Program-made: the position numbers and the translations under genes
NCBI GenBank assembly: GCA_029060725.1
Contig: JAIDTL010000156.1
Span: forward strand, 3,657-67,656
Direction of reading: 5' to 3'
DNA from: Muribaculaceae bacterium
GTDB lineage: Bacteria > Bacteroidota > Bacteroidia > Bacteroidales > Muribaculaceae
DNA length: 64,000 nucleotides
Part shown: positions 19,098 to 64,000 of the stretch, in pieces
How positions within the stretch are numbered: position 1 is the first letter of the stretch
Layout: the number at the start of each line of letters is the position of its first letter
Notes under the pieces: model-generated
The model's database searches: none
The model's input: only the letters and a program-made list of their open reading frames with translations
Told to the model about the DNA's origin: nothing

Positions 19098-20750
19098 CTA
19101 CTTGGTGGATAGTGCGTTGAGGATGGCCTCGTATGCATCGGTGCGGGCATTGTTTTTCCAAAGGTCACCCATACCGGCGAAGATGATACCTGCGCGGTTC
19201 TCAGCCTTTACGAGACGGAAATATTCCGATACAATGAATCCATAGAATTCAGCATCAGCATTGACCACCGACAAATTATCAAGACGAATGAGTTTTCCTG
19301 AGTTTCCGAGAGCTGTGAAGAGATCCGTCACAGCTTGACGATTGGCTGCTGAAGCCTCAATATTGTTCATCGCAACAGCTATGCCGTCTATCTTAGCACC
19401 GGCATTCGTCCATGCAGCGACTTGAGAAAGCAGGCTCTGAGTCTTTTCTGCATTTCCTACAAGACCGGATTCTCCAACATAGAACTTAGCATTTCCGACA
19501 CCTCCGGCAGCAGAATATGATTTGGAGAGACAATCGGTGACAGTCTTTACATAGTTGTCGCCCATGTAATCATTGAAGAAGAACATACCGGACATATCGT
19601 TGACAATATTTCCTTCTTCATCAAGAACTGCTTCAGACTCTGTAGAACGGAGTACGTAAGGAGCAACATCACTCATCGGATTGGCTACCACAACATAATC
19701 TGATATAGACGGAGCGCAAGCGGTCATAATTGCGTCTGCCCAATTGCTGAAATTATCTGCGAGAGCAGCAGCTTTCTCAGCCTCATTCTTTTCTACATAC
19801 TTGTCAGGCACACCGGTAGTCCAACCAAACTGTATATTGTCAATAAAATAGTATGAGTTATTGACATTGGGACCGAAGCCAATGGTAATTTCAGTTGCAC
19901 TCTTGTCTGCATCAGAGATTTCTACATCAGTGATATCAAGTACAAGCTTATTCATCCAAGTTTCAAGTGGACATCCGCGCTTATCGGGGGTATCACCTGT
20001 GAAATTCTTTCGCACACCGTTTACAATAGCCACAAAATTTCTTTTTTGAGACTTGTCATCGGGACAATAAAGATCAAATACTATAGATGTAATATTTCCA
20101 ATTGTCAATCCATTGGGAAGTGCAAAAGTAAGCTCAGCATAAGAGTTCCTTGCCTTATCAGAGGATGATCCTATCTGAAGTACATTTCCATCGGCTCCCG
20201 AGGGATTGGCAGCAACAACTGCTGTACTTCCATTAGTCATAGGATAAATTTTACCTTGCGCATCATCTTCAAAATCAGTCGCCAAAATCGTACCTATCGC
20301 CAAATCACCTTTGACAAAGGTAGGAGAAATCACTTCTTCAAGATATGCCTTTGGAAGGGCGTTGTAAGCGAGCATAGCGCCTCCTGCCACTTTCGAACCG
20401 TCCTGAATAAACATATCTGTCACCGGAGTCAAAACGATATCACCATCCTCGTTCAGTATAGTCGAATATGACAGAGCATTGAGATCGGTCACCATGTCGA
20501 AATTTGTCAGAGCCACGCTATAGGTAAGTCCTTGTGAAGCATAGTCTGCAGAATTCACTGCAAGACCAAGCTTGAAGTTAGGATTTTGAGCGCGATCTAT
20601 CACACTATTGAGAGTAGCGAGAGAAGCGAGATGCTCAGCATGCTCCACACTCTCCGGTTTGTCCATCTTGAAATCACCCTCATAGCCATCGGCACATGAA
20701 GCAGCTGCTATCGCAAGTGCAGGCAGAGTGTAAATAAATATCTTTTTCAT
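19098..20750 (-). CDS. GH10-like lipoprotein with inserted CBM-like domain, probably a non-catalytic glycan-binding protein
   Basis: lipobox AAASC; PNFKLGLAV..NFDMVT, KIDGIA, GKLIRL resemble the GH10 barrel; catalytic Glu motifs not seen. Confidence 0.65.
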   Translation of the reverse strand: MKKIFIYTLPALAIAAASCADGYEGDFKMDKPESVEHAEHLASLATLNSVIDRAQNPNFKLGLAVNSADYASQGLTYSVALTNFDMVTDLNALSYSTILNEDGDIVLTPVTDMFIQDGSKVAGGAMLAYNALPKAYLEEVISPTFVKGDLAIGTILATDFEDDAQGKIYPMTNGSTAVVAANPSGADGNVLQIGSSSDKARNSYAELTFALPNGLTIGNITSIVFDLYCPDDKSQKRNFVAIVNGVRKNFTGDTPDKRGCPLETWMNKLVLDITDVEISDADKSATEITIGFGPNVNNSYYFIDNIQFGWTTGVPDKYVEKNEAEKAAALADNFSNWADAIMTACAPSISDYVVVANPMSDVAPYVLRSTESEAVLDEEGNIVNDMSGMFFFNDYMGDNYVKTVTDCLSKSYSAAGGVGNAKFYVGESGLVGNAEKTQSLLSQVAAWTNAGAKIDGIAVAMNNIEASAANRQAVTDLFTALGNSGKLIRLDNLSVVNADAEFYGFIVSEYFRLVKAENRAGIIFAGMGDLWKNNARTDAYEAILNALSTK

Positions 20751-42755: not shown

Positions 42756-42795
42756 GCAAAGATATCACATTGCGACGCTGCAATCCCCTTATCCC
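42756..42795 (-). promoter_or_regulatory. GGGATAAGGGG-N20-TATCTTTGC promoter of the portal-like gene
   Basis: same motif and spacing as 47690..47729. Confidence 0.7.
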
Positions 42796-42805
42796 ACAAA
42801 TAATG

Positions 42806-42878
42806 AAGCCCCCCAGCCCCCTAAAGGGGGAGTAAAATCGCCAATTCTACTCTCTCCCTTTAGGGGGGTGGGGGACTT
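42806..42878. repeat. REP-like GC-rich inverted repeat (family B)
   Basis: CCCCCAGCCCCCTAAAGGGGGAG ... CTCTCCCTTTAGGGGGGTGGGGG. Confidence 0.8.
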
Positions 42879-42890
42879 CGCCTGGAGGCT

Positions 42891-43910
42891 TTAGAATTCC
42901 ACAAGAATACGGAAGATATCCGGACGATGGGTATTCCAATATGCCAGGATTTCTTCAGCCTGCTCAGGCTGTACTATTGCAGATATGAGGGAGTCGACAG
43001 GGCAAGTGCCACGCTTCATGTATTCCTTCACAGCCTTGAAGTCTTCAGGAAGAGCATTGCGCGAGCCCCTTATGTCCAGTTCTTTCTGCACGAAAAGCTT
43101 TGTCTGGAAAGTGACAGGAGCCGGTGAATATCCGATGCACACCACGCGTCCGGCAAACGACACCTCATTTACAGCAAGATTATATGTGAAAGGCGACCCC
43201 ACAGCTTCTATCACTACATCCGGGCCATCACCACCGGTGATTTCCATCAGTTTGTCGTGGAAGTCTTCTTTTGAAGAGTCAAGACCGTATGAAGCCCCAA
43301 GATGCTTGGCAAGCTCAAGTTTCTTTTCGTCAAGATCCACTGCTATCACTTTTGCACCGCGCAGGGCGGCACGCACTATCGCACCAACACCTATCATACC
43401 GCATCCGATCACCATTACAGTGTCGATATCAGTGACTTCGCCACGTGCTACGGCATGGAAACCGACGCTCATTGGCTCGATGAGGGCGCATTCCTTTACG
43501 CTTAGGCCATCAGCCTCCACCACTTTTTCCCATGGCACAGCGATATACTCCTGCATAGCGCCATGACGTTGCACGCCAAGGGTCTGGTTGTCGCGGCAGG
43601 TGTTGGGACGCCTGCGACGGCAAGACGGGCACTTTCCGCAGGCTGTATAGGGATTGACGGTCACGTGCATCCCTTTTCTGAAAAGCCCTGCGGGCACTTC
43701 CGCCCCAATTTCCTCCACAACAGCGCCGATCTCATGACCCGGCACTACAGGGGAGATAGCAAGGGCATTCTTCCCAAGATACGTATTAAGGTCAGATCCG
43801 CAGAATCCGACATATCCTATTTTCAGCAGCACTTCATCTGCTGACATCTGCGGCCTCTCAGCCTCTACTATAATAACTTTCTCAGGCGATTCAATTAAAA
43901 TCTTTTTCAT
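42891..43910 (-). CDS. Zn-dependent dehydrogenase, putative L-galactonate dehydrogenase
   Basis: CGSD, GHE, CxxCxxC..C, GCGMIG; context with AKR and amidohydrolase. Confidence 0.8.
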   Translation of the reverse strand: MKKILIESPEKVIIVEAERPQMSADEVLLKIGYVGFCGSDLNTYLGKNALAISPVVPGHEIGAVVEEIGAEVPAGLFRKGMHVTVNPYTACGKCPSCRRRRPNTCRDNQTLGVQRHGAMQEYIAVPWEKVVEADGLSVKECALIEPMSVGFHAVARGEVTDIDTVMVIGCGMIGVGAIVRAALRGAKVIAVDLDEKKLELAKHLGASYGLDSSKEDFHDKLMEITGGDGPDVVIEAVGSPFTYNLAVNEVSFAGRVVCIGYSPAPVTFQTKLFVQKELDIRGSRNALPEDFKAVKEYMKRGTCPVDSLISAIVQPEQAEEILAYWNTHRPDIFRILVEF

Positions 43911-43929
43911 CTTAAATTATTTATTGAGC

Positions 43930-43980
43930 CAATCAGACTAATAAGACTAATTGGACTAATTTGACTAATTAGGCTAATTA
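43930..43980. repeat. 9-mer tandem repeat (GACTAATTN-like)
   Basis: agactaata agactaatt ggactaatt tgactaatt aggctaatt a; includes the amidohydrolase stop. Confidence 0.8.
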
Positions 43981-44904
43981 CTCAGACATATTCTTTATAT
44001 AAGGGAGCTCGGGGAGCTCTCTGAAGCCGTAGAAGCGGCAAGCATTCTCCCCAAGGAAGAGGCGCTTTTCCGTCTCGGTCAGGCGCGAAGTCTTCAGGAT
44101 GAAGTCGTAGCTCATTCGGTAGGTGATGGCAGTGATGGTGCGAGGATAGTCGCTACCCCACATCAGTTTTTCCATCCCCACCAGGTCGGCAGCCTCCTTA
44201 ATCGCTGTCACAGCCCCATCGAATGGATAGAACTCCGAGTTGAATAGCCATGTGATGCCACCTGACTCGATCATGACATTAGGATGCCTTGCCAACTTTA
44301 TCTGTTCTTGCCAGCCCGGACACGTCACCATTCCAAAATGCCCGATGGCAATCTTCAAGTCGGGACATGCCGCGATCACATCCTCCATCTCCTTCACCTG
44401 AAGATCTCCATCTGCGAGTGTGATTGAGAGGATGATGCCATTCTTTTCCATCAGACGGAACATCTCGAGCATCTCTCCGGAATTAAGCCATATTCGGGAG
44501 TCCCCTTCAAGTGGAAGCCTATGAGCAGGGATAGCAATGGCTTTAAAACCTTTTTCTATCAATTTTGCTGCCTCCTCCACGAATCCGGGTCGCAGATAGT
44601 GGCACATGCCGCAACAGAGGAATCTATCGGGATAGCGCCTCTGTACATCTTCAAGATAGGCATTCTGATTGCCGTCGATAAATTCTTGAGTCACTACGGC
44701 AGCCGCCACTTGCGCATAGTCCATATTGGAAAGGAACACTTCTGCACTATTGCGCCCATCAATCATAAACGGAGGAAGCATCTGACGCTCCTCCCCAAAG
44801 AAATCCGCACGTCCATTGGCAAGTTGCCTGACCCTTCCACCCCCCGGCAGCTCAGCATACTGCTGCAGCCACAAATGCGCATGCGCATCAATAATCCTTA
44901 TCAT
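43978..44904 (-). CDS. amidohydrolase-2 family, putative L-galactono-lactonase
   Basis: DAHAH, GHFG, LMWGSDYP. Confidence 0.8.
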   Translation of the reverse strand: MIRIIDAHAHLWLQQYAELPGGGRVRQLANGRADFFGEERQMLPPFMIDGRNSAEVFLSNMDYAQVAAAVVTQEFIDGNQNAYLEDVQRRYPDRFLCCGMCHYLRPGFVEEAAKLIEKGFKAIAIPAHRLPLEGDSRIWLNSGEMLEMFRLMEKNGIILSITLADGDLQVKEMEDVIAACPDLKIAIGHFGMVTCPGWQEQIKLARHPNVMIESGGITWLFNSEFYPFDGAVTAIKEAADLVGMEKLMWGSDYPRTITAITYRMSYDFILKTSRLTETEKRLFLGENACRFYGFRELPELPYIKNMSE

Positions 44905-44908
44905 AATC

Positions 44909-45841
44909 TTATGAGTTTTTCCAGCTTACACGTTGCTGATCCCCTATGATCTCTTTCACTTTCATGATCAGCTCCTCCGGGGCTTTTTCGGCTACGTATG
45001 CTATGTTGCGGCGTACGTTGTCGGGGTTGGCGGAGCTGAAGAGCGTCGACGCAATCCGCGGATTGTCTACACTATATTGGATAGCAAGCTTCTCGATAGG
45101 ATACCCAACCTCATTGCAGTATTCTGCAGCCTTGCGGCAAGCTTCCACAAGAGGCTTCGGTGCCGGATGCCAGTCGGGGACACCGCGATTTGAAAGAAGA
45201 CCCATCGACAACGGAGATGCATTTATTACCCCGATTCCTCTTTCTTCGAAGAAAGGAAGGAAGTCGACGAGTTTATCATCGTTAAGGCAGTAATGGCAGA
45301 AGTTAAGCACGCTTTCTATAGTTCCCGGCTTTGAGTGCTCTATCACCCATTTGAGGTTTTCAAGCTGCAAGTCGGTGATTCCCACATGTCCTACAATACC
45401 CTTTTCACGAAGTTCGACAAGCGCCGGCAGCGTCTCTTCCACCACCTGATTCAGATCGGCAAACTCAATGTCATGTACATTGATAAGATCTATATAGTCA
45501 ATGCCGAGACGCTCCATGCTTTCGTAGACACTCTCTTGCGCACGACGCCCGGAATAATCCCAAGTATTGACACCATCCTTGCCGTAGCGTCCCACCTTGG
45601 TGGAGAGATAGTATTTGTCGCGTCCTATTCCACGCAGAGCTTTTCCAAGCACTGTCTCTGCCTTGTAATGCCCATAATAGGGGGAGACGTCGATGAAATT
45701 GATGCCACCTTCAATGGCAGCGTATACAGCTTCTATAGCCTTTCCTTCGTCGATGCTTCTGAAGACCCCGCCAAGAGAGGAGGCTCCAAAACTCAGTTGC
45801 GACACTTTCATGCCGGTACGTCCGATTTCTCTGTATTCCAT
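44909..45841 (-). CDS. aldo/keto reductase, putative L-galactose dehydrogenase
   Basis: FGASSLG, IDVSPYYG..AE, STKVGRYG, HDIEF, NASPLSMGLL. Confidence 0.85.
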   Translation of the reverse strand: MEYREIGRTGMKVSQLSFGASSLGGVFRSIDEGKAIEAVYAAIEGGINFIDVSPYYGHYKAETVLGKALRGIGRDKYYLSTKVGRYGKDGVNTWDYSGRRAQESVYESMERLGIDYIDLINVHDIEFADLNQVVEETLPALVELREKGIVGHVGITDLQLENLKWVIEHSKPGTIESVLNFCHYCLNDDKLVDFLPFFEERGIGVINASPLSMGLLSNRGVPDWHPAPKPLVEACRKAAEYCNEVGYPIEKLAIQYSVDNPRIASTLFSSANPDNVRRNIAYVAEKAPEELIMKVKEIIGDQQRVSWKNS

Positions 45842-45903
45842 GTTGATTTAAAGTTTTGATTTTTGTTAGGATATCAGATTATGCTCCAATTTATGACGAT
45901 AAC

Positions 45904-45998
45904 TTATCAGCTCGAAGAGCTGTCATCATGCCAAAACCCCGGACTTCAGTCCGGGGCTACACGATAAAGGCTCAGTAGCCTCGGAGAGGCGCTTTATG
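45904..45998 (-). repeat. REP-like dispersed element family A, copy 3 (inverted)
   Basis: reverse complement reads CATAAAGCGCCTCTCCGAGGCTACTGAG..CCCCGGACT-GA-AGTCCGGGG..CAGCTC-TTC-GAGCTG. Confidence 0.85.
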
Positions 45999-46063
45999 AT
46001 ATAGTCATAATTCTCACTCATGATCCAAAACCATACTTAATTGCAAAGACTGCTATGATTGTG

Positions 46064-46071
46064 CAAAGTTA
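46064..46071 (-). promoter_or_regulatory. -7 promoter element (AKR operon)
   Basis: TAACTTTG(CAC) on minus strand. Confidence 0.45.
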
Positions 46072-46095
46072 ATCAATAATCGGGATAAAACCAAA

Positions 46096-46587
46096 TTATA
46101 ATGGCCAAAGCGGACGGACTACTCCTGATAGATGTGGATGCGAGACCGAAGCAAGATTCCGGAGCGATGCAATGGCGTCGGAAGCTCGCTCTTGCCAGAT
46201 TTTGGCGCCTGGAGGGATGATGACGGCAGTGCGGTCTGCCATTACGGCGGCTACAAGATATTCATGGATCTTCTCCCTGATGTAAGAGACCGAGGATGAA
46301 GGCAATGGAAACAAAAAAGAAAACTGCCATGATTCCGGACGTTCAAGATCATTTGCAAGAGAAACCCTACATTGGGGAGACAATATCTTTTGAAGAGCAA
46401 GCCGTATCTCTGCGATGGCAACGCCGAGCACACGCCATACCCTCTCTACGTTGTCCTTCTCGCATATATCCGCCATCTCATGCCGGCGATGGCGGTCAAG
46501 CTCCGGATGCAGCTCCGCCTCAAGCCACGCGCCACTGCGTATATCGTCGAGGACCTCCCTTGATTTAATGCATAATTCATAATTCAT
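46096..46587 (-). CDS. small phage-like helical protein (adaptor/connector-like), paralogue 3
   Basis: RHEMADICEKDNVERVWRVL, IHEYLVA; similar size and layout to its neighbours. Confidence 0.5.
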   Translation of the reverse strand: MNYELCIKSREVLDDIRSGAWLEAELHPELDRHRRHEMADICEKDNVERVWRVLGVAIAEIRLALQKILSPQCRVSLANDLERPESWQFSFLFPLPSSSVSYIREKIHEYLVAAVMADRTAVIIPPGAKIWQERASDAIASLRNLASVSHPHLSGVVRPLWPL

Positions 46588-46596
46588 AATTTATCG

Positions 46597-47085
46597 TTAA
46601 TCGTTAATCGTTGTCCTTGATGGTTTGGTGCGTTTGCAGAGGGATTCTCGTAGGAGTTCGAGACTGGTTTCGGAAAGACGCTTGTAGTCTTCAGTGTCCT
46701 GCTTGTTGGTGATCATAAACCATTCGGAGGTTGCAAAAGCAACAATATACTGATGGATAGCCGCAATTATGGAGTCAGTGGCAGCTTGATTGAAATTCTC
46801 AGGCATCTCAAGGAAGAGTTCTTCCGACTCTGTACTTATATTGAGCGTATTGTTACCTTGAGTATCGTGTCCCGTCAACACCTCGGCAAGCTCAGCTTTC
46901 ACCTTGGCAAAAGCATTCCCTATACTGCGGAGTATTTGATTGAGGTTCTCGTCATCATTGTTAGCCTGCATCAGTGCAACCTGACGATAGTTTTTGCCGT
47001 CACTGCGGCTTCTGCCTGTAAGGTAGGTCTTGTTCTGGATATCGTAGACGAGCTCCTTGACATTGATGTTAATTTTGATAAGCAT
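46597..47085 (-). CDS. small phage-like helical protein (adaptor/connector-like), paralogue 2
   Basis: ELVYDIQNKTYLTG, IHQYIVAFATSEWF. Confidence 0.5.
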   Translation of the reverse strand: MLIKININVKELVYDIQNKTYLTGRSRSDGKNYRQVALMQANNDDENLNQILRSIGNAFAKVKAELAEVLTGHDTQGNNTLNISTESEELFLEMPENFNQAATDSIIAAIHQYIVAFATSEWFMITNKQDTEDYKRLSETSLELLRESLCKRTKPSRTTIND

Positions 47086-47098
47086 AATTATTATTTTT

Positions 47099-47237
47099 AA
47101 TTTAGAATTTAGAATAATTGAGAATTGAGATTTTGGAATAATTCATGATTACCCATGATTACCCATGATTACCCATGATGAATCATGATAAATCTTATCT
47201 AATAATTCATAATTTATAATTCATAGTTAATAGTTAA
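47099..47237. repeat. compound microsatellite (AATTTAG/AATTGAG, three CATGATTACC, TAATTCA/TAGTTAA)
   Basis: direct reading; includes the stop of 47227..47661. Confidence 0.8.
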
Positions 47238-47661
47238 ATCTCTTCGGTGCCGGATGGTGATAAAGGATAGATTGGAGTTTGAGAGCATAGTCGTCGCGAC
47301 GCGAAAACGTTGCACCCGAACGCTCCGGACTCACTATCTCTTGCCAGAGGGCAAGGACATGGGAAGTGAGCATATTCTCGACTGTCTTTTGCAGACTGAC
47401 GGTGTCAGTGGTTTCATTGACAGCGATGGTCATTGAGAGTGAATCGTCGGTGTTGGCGACACTCTTTAGGAAAGGCCGACAGATATCGATGGCGTGCATC
47501 GCCGCTTCGTCGAAGAAGGAGTGGAAGAGTGATTTGTCAGCCTCTGAAAGAGCAAGACGATCATAATCGTTGTCTTGTGGGGAGCGGGTGCCCTGCCACT
47601 CGGTGCGTCTTGCCACTTGCGTGAAGACTTGCATTCGGGGTATTACGATAGATGTTTCCAT
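47227..47661 (-). CDS. small phage-like helical protein (adaptor/connector-like), paralogue 1
   Basis: VFTQVARRTEWQG, YDRLAL, LTSHVLALWQ; first gene of the trio. Confidence 0.5.
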   Translation of the reverse strand: METSIVIPRMQVFTQVARRTEWQGTRSPQDNDYDRLALSEADKSLFHSFFDEAAMHAIDICRPFLKSVANTDDSLSMTIAVNETTDTVSLQKTVENMLTSHVLALWQEIVSPERSGATFSRRDDYALKLQSILYHHPAPKRFNY

Positions 47662-47689
47662 AATCAGGTATAATTTTGCTGTTACGCTT

Positions 47690-47729
47690 GCAAAATTACT
47701 TCATCCCCACCTCCGCTCCCCCTTATCCC
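47690..47729 (-). promoter_or_regulatory. GGGATAAGGGG-N20-TAATTTTGC promoter of the small-protein trio
   Basis: same motif and spacing as 42756..42795. Confidence 0.7.
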
Positions 47730-47735
47730 CATAAA

Positions 47736-47761
47736 ATGGAAAGCAGGCTTTCCAGCCTGCG
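47736..47761 (+). repeat. half copy of REP-like family C
   Basis: ATGGAAAGCAGGCTTTCCAGCCTGCG, identical to 62370..62395. Confidence 0.8.
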
Positions 47762-47792
47762 CCCCCACGCTTATGCCCTCTGCGACTTACAG

Positions 47793-61396: not shown

Positions 61397-61886
61397 TGTT
61401 AGATTGTTAAGTTTTATTGTTGTTTAATTTATTATCACTTTATTAATCCGAAAGGAGTGCTTATGTCGCTGAATTGTCAGTGGTAAGGCATAGCCTTTTA
61501 GCAAATCTACGCATTAATGTGCAAATTTACAAAAAATATTTCAAAGTTTAGCTAAAAAACAATATAAAAAAGCAATTATTTAATAATTTCATGCAAATTA
61601 GAACCACAAGCAGCTCAGACTATCACTCTAATTAGTATATCTTGGCGCCAGCTATATCCTCCAGGTTATCATAGAGGATGCTTTTTCCAAAGAAGGCGAT
61701 AGTGGTGCGAACGCAGTGAGCACTCCATAAAGCAAATTTATACTAAAATTCTCTCTTATCAAAATTTTCCTCTGATTTCATGCTGATTTCTACGGCTTAG
61801 AAAGACGCCATCATCGACTGCACAAAACCGTGCAGTCTTTTACAATTTTTAACACAATTTATTTTGCTTAATGCTTTGCTTTGTCA

Positions 61887-61894
61887 TAATTTTG
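61887..61894 (+). promoter_or_regulatory. -7 promoter element of the rightward phage-like unit
   Basis: TAATTTTG(CA), 30 nt before ATG 61925. Confidence 0.5.
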
Positions 61895-61924: not shown

Positions 61925-62320
61925 ATGAAAAAGAAAGGAAGCCGCAGCGACTTCAATGCCCAGCGTGACGCCGAACTCCGCCAGGCATTCTTCAACCAAG
62001 GAGTCTATTCCACTAATGACAGAGTAATCAAACGAACCGTCAAAACCCCCACTTCCCGATTCTGGGTAGACCCGGACCGGGCCCGAGATATCATGAGCCG
62101 TATCGAGAAAGATCCCACCTCTATAAAGAGGATGAATCCCGAACGGCAACGTATGTATCTTTCCCTATACGAAAAGTATCAGAAACTGAGACGCAAATGC
62201 CCCTCCTATTCCAAAATCGAAGCCGTAACAATCGCCATCTACTCCGGCGCCCCTGAATTCTTCCTCGCCCCATCCACAGCCCGCTCCATCATCTACAACA
62301 ATGTTTATCCCACTTATTGA
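61925..62320 (+). CDS. small basic phage-associated protein
   Basis: KKKGSRSDF..RD.EL, PTSRFWVD..RA, APEFFLAP recall Bacteroidales prophage genes near terminase. Confidence 0.5.
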   Translation: MKKKGSRSDFNAQRDAELRQAFFNQGVYSTNDRVIKRTVKTPTSRFWVDPDRARDIMSRIEKDPTSIKRMNPERQRMYLSLYEKYQKLRRKCPSYSKIEAVTIAIYSGAPEFFLAPSTARSIIYNNVYPTY

Positions 62321-63635
62321 AAAAGATCGCGACGCCAATGACTTTACCTGCCGCGACGGCGAAATCGACATGGAAAGCAGGCTTTCCAGCCTGCGGCTAA
62401 CCACACCTGACGCGCCAAGCCGCAGGCCGGAAGGCCTGCTTTCCATAAATCCATCAGGCACTTACCCCACTGCAACCTTGCGGATTCCTCTCTTGGCAGG
62501 GGAGAAGGAGAAGGCAAATCTGATGCTGTCAGGTGAAATCTCTCGTGTAGACCCTGCCACTGCAGAGAGAATCACACAAGCCATACTTCAAAAGGCAGCT
62601 GAGTTTCTTCTCGATCTCTCGACTGAACTAAGAAGACAAGGGCAATTCATCCTTCCATTCCGGTGCTTTACCATGACGATGACTCCCGATGGCTCTCTCT
62701 CCTACCCTTCCCCACAAGCCATCGCTCTCCCCACTGATTTCCCACCCCATCCTGAAATAACTGCAGCAACTGCTACCGACGATGCCCTGACTATCGCCAT
62801 ACGGTTGCCCGTACGTCCACATCGATTGATCCTCTCATCATCCGAAGGCTTGTCTATGGGTGATTCACTTCGCACATTCATCAGTTATCCTCTCTATATT
62901 CCCGACCCCAAGGAACTGCGAGGAAGCATCGGGAGCGTGAAGTCTGCCACCGGAGGGAATGCCATCGGCATTCGGTTTGCTTTTCTTTCCACTTCTTCGA
63001 TAAAGGCTTCTGTGGCAGCCCCGGAGAAGTATTATGAATTTGTCGGCAATGAACGTACCGGGTATCGTGTGTCGTCGAAAGCTGCGTCTGCTCCCGATTA
63101 CTCTTGTTATGCCGCTATCTATGGCAGTGTTACGCCATTCTCCCGTAATTCTTTGTTATCTCTCGGCAATGACGTCTCAGCCGACACTGATCCTATGGAT
63201 TGGATTGCAGATTGGATAGAAGCCGGCGATGGATACCTCCCATCAAATCTCCCTTATAAATATCGGAATCCTGATTCTACATCTGAGTCTTTCACTTTTC
63301 CTGAAGGCATCGACGCTGACTATATAAAGGAGACCGCCACTGCTCTTGATATGCCATACATATTGCTGACTCGCCCCATGGCATTGGCTTCCGACAGCAG
63401 GAGCCGACGAAATGCAGCCCCACGTGCCATCCGAAGCATCCAAGTCTTAGGTTTATCTGACTCCCCCGCTCTCGGAATTATCTATGGCAGCGATGATTGC
63501 CGGCACTGGGAACCCCTTCGCAGTTTCGACCCCCACATCAAAAGCCACATCCTCTCCCCTCCACGCCTTTGGTGGCGCCTGCTGCTCTTAACATCCCAAC
63601 CCAACAAAGCCTTAGCCCTCCACCTCCTCCCCTAA
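62301..63635 (+). CDS. phage tail-tubular/stabilisation-like protein, probably internally shortened
   Basis: CRDGE N-terminus, FILPF, LLTRPMAL, IYGSDD..W C-terminus (recalled similarity); open frame of 444 aa. Confidence 0.4.
   Translation: MFIPLIEKDRDANDFTCRDGEIDMESRLSSLRLTTPDAPSRRPEGLLSINPSGTYPTATLRIPLLAGEKEKANLMLSGEISRVDPATAERITQAILQKAAEFLLDLSTELRRQGQFILPFRCFTMTMTPDGSLSYPSPQAIALPTDFPPHPEITAATATDDALTIAIRLPVRPHRLILSSSEGLSMGDSLRTFISYPLYIPDPKELRGSIGSVKSATGGNAIGIRFAFLSTSSIKASVAAPEKYYEFVGNERTGYRVSSKAASAPDYSCYAAIYGSVTPFSRNSLLSLGNDVSADTDPMDWIADWIEAGDGYLPSNLPYKYRNPDSTSESFTFPEGIDADYIKETATALDMPYILLTRPMALASDSRSRRNAAPRAIRSIQVLGLSDSPALGIIYGSDDCRHWEPLRSFDPHIKSHILSPPRLWWRLLLLTSQPNKALALHLLP
62370..62446. 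repeat. REP-like family C inverted repeat inside an ORF
   Basis: 29-bp arms ATGGAAAGCAGGCTTTCCAGCCTGCGGCT / AGCCGCAGGCCGGAAGGCCTGCTTTCCAT (2 mismatches). Confidence 0.85.
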
Positions 63636-63682
63636 AGCCCTTAAAGCCCTTAGTGCCCCTAATGCCCCTAATGCCCCTAAAG
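63630..63682. repeat. 9-mer tandem repeat (CCCTAATGC/CCTTAAAGC), same family as 5446..5540
   Basis: ccctaaagc ccttaaagc ccttagtgc ccctaatgc ccctaatgc ccctaaag. Confidence 0.8.
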
Positions 63683-63687
63683 ATAAA

Positions 63688-64000
63688 ATGACACAAGAAG
63701 AAATTTCAATTGAACAAATACTCGAAGAGGATGAACGCCGCTCCAGAGCTATGTCGACTCCTTACGATCCGGTGTCGGGACTCTTGAGCCCCGGCACCAG
63801 ATTCTCCATATCCATCCCAGAGCTGGAGCCATCCAGACTGCATATCCCGACAGCCATGCAGGAACTCCCGGAAGTCCGTATGCTCATGGCAGGACGTAGC
63901 CTTACGGAGGCTTTCCCCGGAACGATAGAAAATGCCCGCCAGAGATGGTTTGAGCTCCGTTGCCGCTACGATTTCCCTTTCTGGGCTTTCAAGTGCATCA
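63688..64000 (+). CDS. 5' part of a terminase-large-subunit-like gene (runs off the window)
   Basis: hand translation MTQEEISIEQILEEDERRSRAMSTPYDPVSG...RCRYDFPFWAFKCI; PYDPV.G and DFPFWA recall Bacteroidales prophage terminase N-termini; not in the ORF track. Confidence 0.55.
   Translation, partial: MTQEEISIEQILEEDERRSRAMSTPYDPVSGLLSPGTRFSISIPELEPSRLHIPTAMQELPEVRMLMAGRSLTEAFPGTIENARQRWFELRCRYDFPFWAFKCI

Follow-up and report, generated by a model that had tools for sequence, protein, structure and literature searches.

The composite motif GATAAGG-N22-TAnnTTTG represents, judging from its sequence pattern, a promoter class of its own in a Muribaculaceae lineage. On balance it appears to be a late-type promoter, by analogy with those of phages Mu (C/Mor) and T4 (MotA), at which the sigma-A RNA polymerase works with a putative factor that replaces the -33 contact. 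The -7 box would be read normally by the primary sigma factor; the upstream box (GGGATAAGGGG in this species) stands in the same register as the missing -33 TTTG, and an additional, faster-evolving DNA-binding factor on this box would most likely substitute for the -33 contact, with transcription starting a few nt downstream of the -7 box. Such promoters may switch on together a set of dispersed, vertically inherited phage-derived genes, comprising the portal, a trio of small genes, the scaffold with the capsid and an adaptor-like gene, and lysis genes; in this clade, promoters of the class are also found ahead of capsule-type loci and groESL.

Architecture and specificity of the box promoters

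The window, that is, the whole stretch of DNA analysed, comprises 64,000 nt from a Muribaculaceae bacterium (contig JAIDTL010000156.1). A preliminary description of it had placed GGGATAAGGGG, exactly 20 unrelated nt and then a -7 box ahead of both a portal-like gene and a trio of small genes, and both arrangements were confirmed at the positions given there, on the minus strand (Table 1). It was also correct that the 11-mer is absent from the other promoters of the window: the third phage-like unit (61925-64000, plus strand), whose packaging genes are not behind a GATAAGG box, has a canonical promoter of the form TTTG-N20-TAATTTTG.

Table 1. Promoters and genes of the window (positions in the window; arrows follow the minus strand)
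Feature	Position	Strand	Details
Third GATAAGG-N22-TAnnTTTG match	20123..20159 (20159->20123)	-	Inside ORF 19098..20750, minus strand
Portal-like gene, 443 aa	41410..42741 (ATG 42741)	-	Pfam P22_portal 2.6e-20; phrog_156 1.6e-40
Portal promoter	42757..42805	-	T-rich 42805->42796; GGGATAAGGGG 42795->42785; 20-nt spacer; TATCTTTG 42764->42757, then C
Trio of small paralogous phage-type genes, 144, 162 and 163 aa	46096..47661 (first ATG 47661)	-	phrog_19255 and phrog_35482
Trio promoter	47691..47739	-	T-rich stretch; GGGATAAGGGG 47729->47719; 20-nt G-rich spacer; TAATTTTG 47698->47691, then C
Canonical promoter of third phage-like unit	61863..61894	+	TTTG 61863-61866; N20; TAATTTTG 61887-61894
Small phage-derived protein	61925..62320	+	phrog_27246 family (typically about 125 aa)
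444-aa protein, between small protein and large terminase	62301..63635	+	
Large terminase gene, approximate start	63715..64000, runs off window (contig C64:67371-69353)	+	

The 11-mer GGGATAAGGGG alone is not significant in the window (two matches with at most one mismatch; at least two in 22 of 100 shuffles). The composite GATAAGG-N22-TAnnTTTG is significant, with three matches in the window versus none in 100 shuffles, and the third of these (Table 1) is probably a chance match or an internal promoter. The outer G's of GGGATAAGGGG can be regarded as a species-specific extension of a functional core, GATAAGG, which lies exactly 22 nt ahead of a normal Bacteroidota -7 box, TAnnTTTG.

Throughout the 3.43-Mb genome, GATAAGGGG-Nx-TAnnTTTG occurs at x = 20 in nine exact and 17 one-mismatch sites, whereas each of the remaining spacings between x = 10 and x = 30 gives no exact site and zero or one with a mismatch, and GATAAGG precedes TAnnTTTG at 15 sites with a spacing of N22 versus zero or one at other spacings. 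These counts are lower bounds, since the assembly, a MAG of 170 contigs, is 87% complete; TAnnTTTG is present at all 15-17 sites by construction of the scan, and C follows it at 16 of the 17. The canonical TTTG promoters of the same genome use two spacings, N20 (293 sites) and N19 (111 sites). The last four bases of the box (GGGG in the 9-mer GATAAGGGG) fall in the columns that hold TTTG at TAnnTTTG sites genome-wide; at box sites GGGG stands in place of the canonical -33 TTTG, which would lie 19-20 nt ahead of the -7 box. A T-rich stretch is also conserved, 5-8 nt ahead of the box. Rfam searches with the window and with 14 promoter loci gave no match to an RNA family at gathering or E-value thresholds, and an interpretation as a DnaA box was dropped: TGTGGGATAA resembles TGTGGATAA with one base too many, and the resemblance does not hold for the sites in general.

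Genes behind the box

The portal-like gene was found in 57 of the 61 searched genomes of the genus, including all 27 of high quality. Both families matched by the trio are of unknown function, and homologues of its 162-aa member, used as the query, were found in 21 of the 61 genomes. A genome-wide scan for further members, which had been proposed on the basis of the window, recovered a capsid unit (a scaffold-like gene, an SU10_MCP capsid gene and an adaptor-like gene) and lysis units, among them one encoding a lipoprotein and an endolysin (phrog_315). Two terminase-ATPase-like paralogues of 333 aa are also members, and a gene of the phrog_32423 family sits behind AATAAGGGA. No tail genes were identified in the genome.

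The box-type promoters thus precede structural and lysis units, alongside non-phage genes: about 7 of the 18 sites in the genome lie ahead of three capsule-type leaders, an integrase/NusG-like head, groESL, nfo and an MNT/HepT toxin-antitoxin pair, and therefore this is not a pure late regulon in this genome. The earlier idea of a regulon with late-type promoters holds insofar as there is a selected promoter element with a gene set at many loci, but not as a set confined to phage-like genes. Nor is the box part of a mobile repeat, a source considered in the preliminary description. A MITE (TIR GGTTCTTCTTCAATTTAGTTGAA; 8-bp target duplication seen at two copies) is inserted exactly 11 nt upstream of the box at four promoters, and its copies elsewhere have no box. 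Some sites are paralogous (C65 with C117; C18 with C40 and C100) and have common spacers and leaders. At the portal, trio, capsid and lysis promoters, neither the spacers nor the flanks are related to each other; homology between these units does not extend beyond the box and the -7 box, the only sequences that they have in common.

Conservation of the box

In other species, the box stands in an unchanged register ahead of the orthologous portal, capsid and lysis units, a check that the preliminary description had proposed. It precedes the orthologous portal, capsid, lysis and DUF1848 units in genomes G011, G013, G034, G057 and G059, and portal orthologues with the same promoter architecture occur in G034, G038, G007, G014, G011, G013, G059 and G060; the portals of box-keeping species are 40-79% identical, and their spacers are unrelated. 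The trio promoter is conserved ahead of the trio in G034 and G061. Distant species have no separate box-type promoter at the trio, which there is probably inside larger operons. Ahead of the capsid unit, (G/A)ATAAGG was found in 31 of 72 public loci, with one mismatch allowed in the box and one in the -7 box; where the capsid is at least 74% identical, all loci have the box except L073 and L075, in which it is shifted by 1-2 nt. Information per column is 0.31 bit in the spacer versus 1.70 in the box, by which the sites had been chosen. Most genomes of the same genus have 0-2 box sites.

The flanks of the box are concordant among the sites of one genome but change from one genome to another (TGTGGGATAAGGGG, TTAAACGGATAAGGA and GGCGCGATAAGGTT). 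The version TTAAACGGATAAGGA, of G057 and G059, resembles GTTAAAYGGATGACA, an upstream box of Bacteroidales temperate phages. Sigma-A is 91-100% identical between the genomes, with an unchanged region-4 recognition helix.

Transcription machinery and a candidate reader

The genome has one sigma-A-type gene, the other sigma factors (about 20 genes) being of the ECF type; a search of the genome for a second sigma-A-like factor found none, there being one r3-bearing sigma. Reading of these promoters by an ECF-type sigma was rejected: the downstream element is the canonical TAnnTTTG and not an ECF sigma's own -35/-10 elements, and no such factor would be expected to read the box. The dedicated activator site postulated in the preliminary description remains a deduction from the DNA, and no activator was found in the clusters: none of the proteins of the box-bearing clusters belongs to a recognised DNA-binding or regulator family, and no homologues of C, Mor, MotA or AsiA were found.

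The small phrog_27246-family protein of the third phage-like unit is a tentative candidate for the reader of the box or late regulator, and its position beside the large terminase would fit a small terminase equally well. Its gene adjoins the large terminase in G000, G057 and G059; in about 30 further loci of Muribaculaceae it is oriented divergently to the scaffold-capsid promoter. It has no sequence match in Pfam or the PDB and nothing below E = 2 with Foldseek; VIA-align gave weak HTH-type structure matches only (Z <= 5.8), and against the structures of Mu C and Mor only Z of about 4. Because the structural matches are weak and a sequence match is absent, the protein is not claimed as the reader. 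The large terminase beside it was found by tblastn with a 708-aa relative (52% identity) that matches phrog_2, terminase large subunit, Pfam Terminase_6N having no match in the genome. The intervening 444-aa protein has no match in Pfam and PHROG searches; orthology with a 437-aa box-driven protein of G059 was considered and is not established (E = 0.025 only).

Alternative explanations for the box

The box may instead be an alternative upstream element read by the host holoenzyme itself, through sigma region 4 or the alpha C-terminal domains, giving constitutive or strong expression like that of the phage promoters which serve as strong constitutive parts in Bacteroides. This has a modest probability: the -7 box is fully canonical, the class is also found before housekeeping-type genes (groESL and nfo), and the T-rich stretch is conserved upstream of the box. 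Moreover, promoters of phage B124-14 (the P_BfP1E6 family) with upstream elements are strongly active in uninfected Bacteroides without phage proteins (10.1101/2025.03.18.644028), so an upstream box need not imply a dedicated factor. These promoters are similar in having a canonical -7 box and conserved upstream sequence, including TTAAA just 5' of the -33 region, but different in having a GTTTCGATT-type box rather than GATAAGG and in being constitutively strong. Against direct recognition by the holoenzyme, the G-rich box resembles neither TTTG nor a UP element rich in A/T; its flanks vary between species whereas sigma-A region 4 does not; most genomes of the genus have almost no sites; and the spacing is stricter than in canonical promoters. 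The lysis genes behind the box also argue against constitutive activity, as constant expression of a lysis cassette and capsid would be costly.

It is rather improbable that the box is a repressor operator over the -33 region of promoters that need the -7 box only, in which case the regulon would be real and turned on by de-repression. Its place would suit occlusion, Bacteroidota promoters can work with a weak or absent -33 element, and in remote Muribaculaceae two divergent promoters, separated by 46-48 nt, have the box region in common as a short palindrome, an arrangement typical of operators. The core, however, is asymmetric, occurs in one orientation and keeps its distance to the -7 box to the single nucleotide; a polymerase-contacting element or a class-II activator needs such constraints, and a repressor does not.

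It is very improbable, and already largely refuted, that the sites arose by chance or by copying of a promoter cassette, mobile or duplicated, and have no common regulation: the paralogous sites and the MITE that abuts four promoters speak for it, but the unrelated spacers and flanks of the four main phage-type promoters, the MITE copies lacking a box, the conservation at orthologous loci across species and the absence of composite matches in shuffles speak against it.

Implications

The preferred reading, a box-bound factor in place of the -33 contact, would constitute a mode of initiation in Bacteroidota without a match in the literature search, in dominant gut bacteria with almost no described regulation that carry a conserved, domesticated set of phage head and lysis genes. 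The short, rigid signature allows the scattered members of the system, the regulon of a possible gene-transfer-agent-like particle, to be listed by computation, as the capsid, lysis and terminase-like units were, and the box offers an experimental handle on the putative switch and on the conditions of any particle production. If the association with capsule-type loci and groESL is real, it suggests a coupling of particle production to the physiology of the cell surface and of chaperones. A bolder and less probable reading would make the GATAAGG box the cis-acting mark of a master switch, by which one putative factor in a gene-transfer-agent-like system of the Bacteroidota would co-induce capsid assembly, lysis, capsule-type loci and extra chaperonin (groESL) at over 15 dispersed promoters. 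If true, no earlier GTA regulon beyond those of Proteobacteria and Firmicutes would have been open to computation, and replacement of the -33 contact would be a new mechanism accessory to sigma-A in Bacteroidota.

Comparison with known systems

The canonical Bacteroidota sigma-ABfr promoter consists of a -33 TTTG and a -7 TAnnTTTG (PMC7366714). The box promoters have the same -7 box, usually followed by C, and an upstream element at the -33 distance (N20 from the end of the 9-mer), but differ in having the GGGG of GATAAGGGG for TTTG and one spacing versus N19 and N20, and in that the box is lineage-specific. The near-palindromic PM2 motif of B. thetaiotaomicron, with its -10 and -30 elements, and the -33 element of Segatella copri (AAAnnTTTGG) were considered and are different motifs. 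The literature search found no paper that describes the box or gives the motif in a pertinent context; a preprint on the engineering of Muribaculum has the -7 box only. A scan of viral contigs for GGATAAGG-N22-TAnnTTTG gave at least 115 contigs with one match each and no phage with multiple sites, consistent with chance.

The Mu late and middle promoters (C and Mor) and the T4 middle promoters (MotA box with AsiA) keep a host-type downstream element and have a factor box in place of the upstream element, at a fixed position overlapping or adjoining -35, with several separate structural and lysis units behind one signal. The box promoters are alike in keeping the downstream element and replacing the upstream one with a box at a fixed distance, but here the host belongs to the Bacteroidota, and the genes reside in its chromosome and are passed on vertically rather than forming part of a phage.

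RcGTA has a multi-locus genome under GafA/CtrA control, and the FpGTA of Faecalibacterium offers another gene transfer agent for comparison (PMC12946183). The Muribaculaceae system differs in being known from genes alone; its -33-replacing box differs from the RcGTA promoter logic as described, and, with respect to common control of the GTA type, its terminase unit stands behind a canonical promoter. In mouse VLP fractions, DNA of Muribaculaceae occurs with uniform coverage, which is circumstantial evidence for particles that package and transfer host DNA (10.64898/2026.07.08.737213). The likeness to a GTA lies in head, packaging and lysis genes that are dispersed over chromosomal loci and vertically inherited, under a common control that is here suggested by the promoter alone.

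Architecture of the box promoters

The portal unit and the small-gene trio, both on the minus strand of the window, are each preceded by the same box, a spacer of exactly 20 nt (the two spacer sequences being unrelated) and a -7 box. The portal site and the ATG of its gene (443 aa; P22-type portal domain, Pfam 2.6e-20 and phrog_156 1.6e-40) are 15 nt apart; 29 nt lie between the trio site and the opening gene of the trio, whose three small members are paralogous and of phage type (phrog_19255, phrog_35482). The 11-mer GGGATAAGGGG alone is unremarkable (two copies in 64 kb, a count matched by 22 of 100 shuffles at one mismatch or fewer); the composite GATAAGG-N22-TAnnTTTG occurs three times in the window versus never in 100 shuffles. 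The motif pair of the preliminary description is real and highly non-random. The third composite match, within an open reading frame, could be fortuitous or mark an internal promoter. Directly upstream of both promoters are G/C-rich inverted repeats, which probably act as terminators for the genes before them and would thereby shield the box promoters from read-through.

The source genome (G000; 3.43 Mb in 170 contigs, 87% complete, with the window at C64:3657-67656) was scanned for the box before TAnnTTTG at all spacings from 10 to 30. With GATAAGGGG as the box, a spacing of 20 gave 9 exact and 17 one-mismatch sites, and every other spacing 0 exact and 0-1 one-mismatch sites; the core GATAAGG, at the spacing that corresponds, gave 15 sites, against 0-1 at any other. 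These sites are a promoter class that extends beyond the two in the window. The TTTG enrichment of pooled TAnnTTTG sites falls exactly on the columns that hold GGGG in box promoters, and canonical TTTG promoters use both N20 (293 sites) and N19 (111 sites; background ~20), so the box class keeps the -7 box of the primary sigma factor, dispenses with the -33 element and tolerates less variation in spacing. Conservation extends to a T-rich stretch that lies 5-8 nt upstream of the box. A MITE-like element is ~290-470 bp long, carries GGTTCTTCTTCAATTTAGTTGAA as its terminal inverted repeats and shows an evident 8-bp target duplication at two copies. In four cases (C18, C117 and C162 twice) exactly 11 nt separate its end from a (G/A)ATAAGG box downstream, which suggests that the T-rich stretch is a preferred insertion site.

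Location of features in the window and on other contigs (C) of the source genome
Feature	Location	Strand	Remarks
Portal-side box GGGATAAGGGG	window 42795->42785	-	then 20 nt and -7 box TATCTTTG(C) or TAATTTTG(C)
Trio-side box GGGATAAGGGG	window 47729->47719	-	then 20 nt and -7 box TATCTTTG(C) or TAATTTTG(C)
Third composite match	window 20159->20123	-	GATAAGGCA-N20-TACTTTTG; within 550-aa ORF 19098..20750
Inverted repeat, portal side	window 42806-42870	-	CCCCCTAAAGGG...CCCCCTTTAGGGGG
Inverted repeat, trio side	window 47740-47775	-	CAGGCTGGAAAGCCTG
Three metabolic genes	window 42891-45841	-	aldo-keto reductase, amidohydrolase_2, zinc alcohol dehydrogenase
phrog_27246 gene, third unit	window 61925-62320	+	small protein
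444-aa gene, third unit		+	no assigned function; between phrog_27246 gene and large terminase
Large terminase, third unit	window, from near 63715	+	extends past window end
333-aa paralogues	C65:26866-27972; C117:276-1382		each behind GATAAGGCG promoter
Non-coding stretches	C65:26210-26765; C117:1482-2130		0.5-0.6 kb
Shared ~90-nt leader GGAAACGAAACCCAGCCGGTTGC...	C18:1645; C40:53302 (-); C100:20379		loci L005, L007, L012
MITE-like element	C18:1280-1598; C117:~1-271; C162:15081-15549; C162:25701-26168; C45:10548-10835		target duplications ATAAATTT (C162:15081), AATTTTTG (C18)
Further exact copies of TTTGTGGGATAAGGGG	C101:108-118 (+); C137:124-134 (-)		near contig ends; no -7 box at N20; perhaps disrupted or rearranged promoters

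Genes behind the box

The preliminary description proposed a phage-gene regulon behind a late-type promoter and expected a genome scan to recover further members, among them a capsid. On C79 the scan did recover a capsid unit behind a box. Its SU10_MCP capsid gene of 481 aa (27.3 bits; cut-off 24.1) stands with a scaffold-like gene of 137 aa and two others, of 138 aa and 194 aa, the latter with a faint match to the SU10 adaptor. Other phage-type members besides the portal and the trio are a lipoprotein with an endolysin (phrog_315) and a phrog_32423 gene behind the variant AATAAGGGA, all on C162; a DUF4417/phrog_940 nuclease-like unit; a DUF1848 unit; and a DUF6291 and primase-helicase unit. 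Two 333-aa paralogues, likewise phage-type members, are similar to the large terminase in its ATPase half (22% identity, E = 5e-13), and each is followed by a second promoter, GATAAGGGG, leading into a non-coding stretch with a repeated motif GGACGGCTCAAATAGGCCCAC, which on C65 continues into groES-groEL; the same two-promoter pair was found in three further genomes of the genus (G034, G014 and G038).

The class is wider than a phage regulon in the source species. Its non-phage or host-type members are an integrase gene with a NusG-like (UpxY-type) gene after it, a long leader before groES-groEL, nfo, an MNT/HepT toxin-antitoxin pair, and a shared ~90-nt leader that starts three transcripts, one of which runs into sugar-nucleotide genes (cytidylyltransferase, GDP-sugar epimerase, dehydratase). 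This leader has no Rfam match; it may be a leader such as NusG-like (UpxY-type) antiterminators use at capsule loci. The proposed reading is largely right, subject to three amendments: GATAAGG is the core, the membership extends beyond phage genes, and the activator is putative.

Distribution and conservation

The portal is present in 57 of the 61 genus genomes searched, including all 27 of high quality. A 150-genome draw of the order yielded only seven weak capsid matches outside the genus (22-25% identity); public loci with capsid genes 70-87% identical are titled Muribaculaceae, Sangeribacter, Muribaculum and similar. The phage-type genes sit amid PULs, GH43, surface-protein and metabolic genes. 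Metabolic genes part the trio from the portal in the window, and the portal adjoins the capsid unit, with a separate box for each, in G057 and G059, so the phage-derived units have been shuffled among host operons. Box sites number 15 in G000, 16 in G034, 14 in G038, 13 in G007, 12 in G014, 6 each in G011 and G013, 4 each in G057 and G059, and 0-2 in most other genus members (reversed-pattern control, 0-1). As low-count genomes keep their sites mostly before phage-type units, we infer that the class expanded to capsule-type and leader-type members within the clade of G000.

Before portal orthologues in G034, G038, G007, G014, G011, G013, G059 and G060, GATAAGG and a -7-type box are N22 apart, their spacers being unrelated in sequence, and the same box precedes the scaffold-capsid unit in G057, G059 and G013 (capsid 67-72% identical, portal ~41%). 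Lysis cassettes (phrog_32423 gene, lipoprotein, endolysin or amidase) lie behind the box in G011 and G059, followed in G059 by the DUF1848 unit. Allowing one mismatch each in box and -7 box, (G/A)ATAAGG is found at N22 before the capsid unit in 31 of 72 public loci. Every locus with a capsid identity of at least 74% bears the box except L073 and L075, where it is shifted by 1-2 nt (GAATAAGGG, CGATAAGGG); in more distant species other boxes take this register (AATAAAACT, TTTAAGGAT or a TTAT(C/G)ATAA palindrome). Column information is 1.70 bit in the box and 0.31 in the spacer, and CA..GTAA is conserved directly after the -7 box; only the spacer and downstream values are independent, because box and -7 box were criteria of site selection. 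Inside one genome the flanks of GATAAGG agree, and from one genome to another they vary: G000 has (T)TGTGGGATAAGGGG, G059 and G057 have TTAA(A)CGGATAAGGA(A/T), G013 has GG(C/G)GCGATAAGGTT, and L074 has TTACATGGATAAGGGG, twice. The G057/G059 version resembles GTTAAAYGGATGACA, a motif reported for Bacteroidales temperate phages.

Candidate reader of the box

The third phage-like unit of the window has a canonical promoter, TTTG-N20-TAATTTTG. Its phrog_27246 gene belongs to a family typically of 125 aa, with an F(W/F)(V/L)...AR..I motif present in two copies and no Pfam match; the gene lies directly upstream of the large terminase gene in G057 and G059, the 444-aa gene intervening in G000. In ~30 other Muribaculaceae loci a member of the family is transcribed away from the scaffold-capsid promoter; in one clade of these, 46-48 nt part the two -7 boxes, which have a central box in common. 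Compact back-to-back promoters between the phrog_27246-family gene and the scaffold-capsid operon (L083, L090, L093, L104, L112, L118, L127, L129 and L136), their divergent -7 boxes at this 46-48 nt distance, have a TTAT(C/G)ATAA-like central palindrome flanked by GTCAA and TTGAC. The family evolves fast (36% identity where sigma-A exceeds 90%). Its AlphaFold model is all-helical (mean pLDDT 73.6); a Foldseek search with the model found nothing, and VIA-align returned weak rows only (Z 4-5.8). HTH DNA-binding domains make up many of these rows, with Mu C, Mu Mor and sigma region 4 among them. The protein would fit the role of small terminase and that of RinA-like late regulator equally, and is put forward tentatively as a candidate box reader.

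Interpretation of the box

G000 has only one sigma-A-type gene, its other sigma factors being ECF-type, and sigma-A is 91-100% identical among the compared genomes with its region-4 recognition helix unchanged. Together with the species-variable flanks, the fixed register and the lysis genes, which would argue against constitutive firing, this favours box promoters that are probably late-type and factor-dependent; a separate reader of the box likely exists. Against this stand chiefly the promoters of phage B124-14, which have upstream elements too and show strong activity in uninfected Bacteroides (10.1101/2025.03.18.644028), as would suit an alternative upstream element that works independently of any factor; the B124-14 boxes differ from GATAAGG, and this explanation is unlikely. 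Less likely again is an operator for a repressor, a layout that the palindromes in the register of distant species would suit; the asymmetric core, with a register fixed to the single nucleotide, suits a polymerase-contacting element. A repeat or chance, whatever the frequency of the 11-mer alone, is scarcely credible beside the composite counts.

Comparison with known systems

Mouse virus-like-particle fractions reportedly contain abundant Muribaculaceae DNA with uniform coverage, by a mechanism that is not known (2026 preprint, 10.64898/2026.07.08.737213). The GTAs listed in a 2026 paper include none from Bacteroidota. The literature searched held no description of the GATAAGG box, nor of factor-box promoters in Bacteroidota or in a domesticated phage context, and no homologues of Mu C/Mor or MotA-type activators were found. 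The box class departs from the canonical Bacteroidota promoter at -33, and its box is distinct from PM2 of B. thetaiotaomicron. Promoters dependent on Mu C/Mor or T4 MotA retain the downstream element and have a factor box in place of the upstream one, and it is these that the box promoters resemble in architecture.
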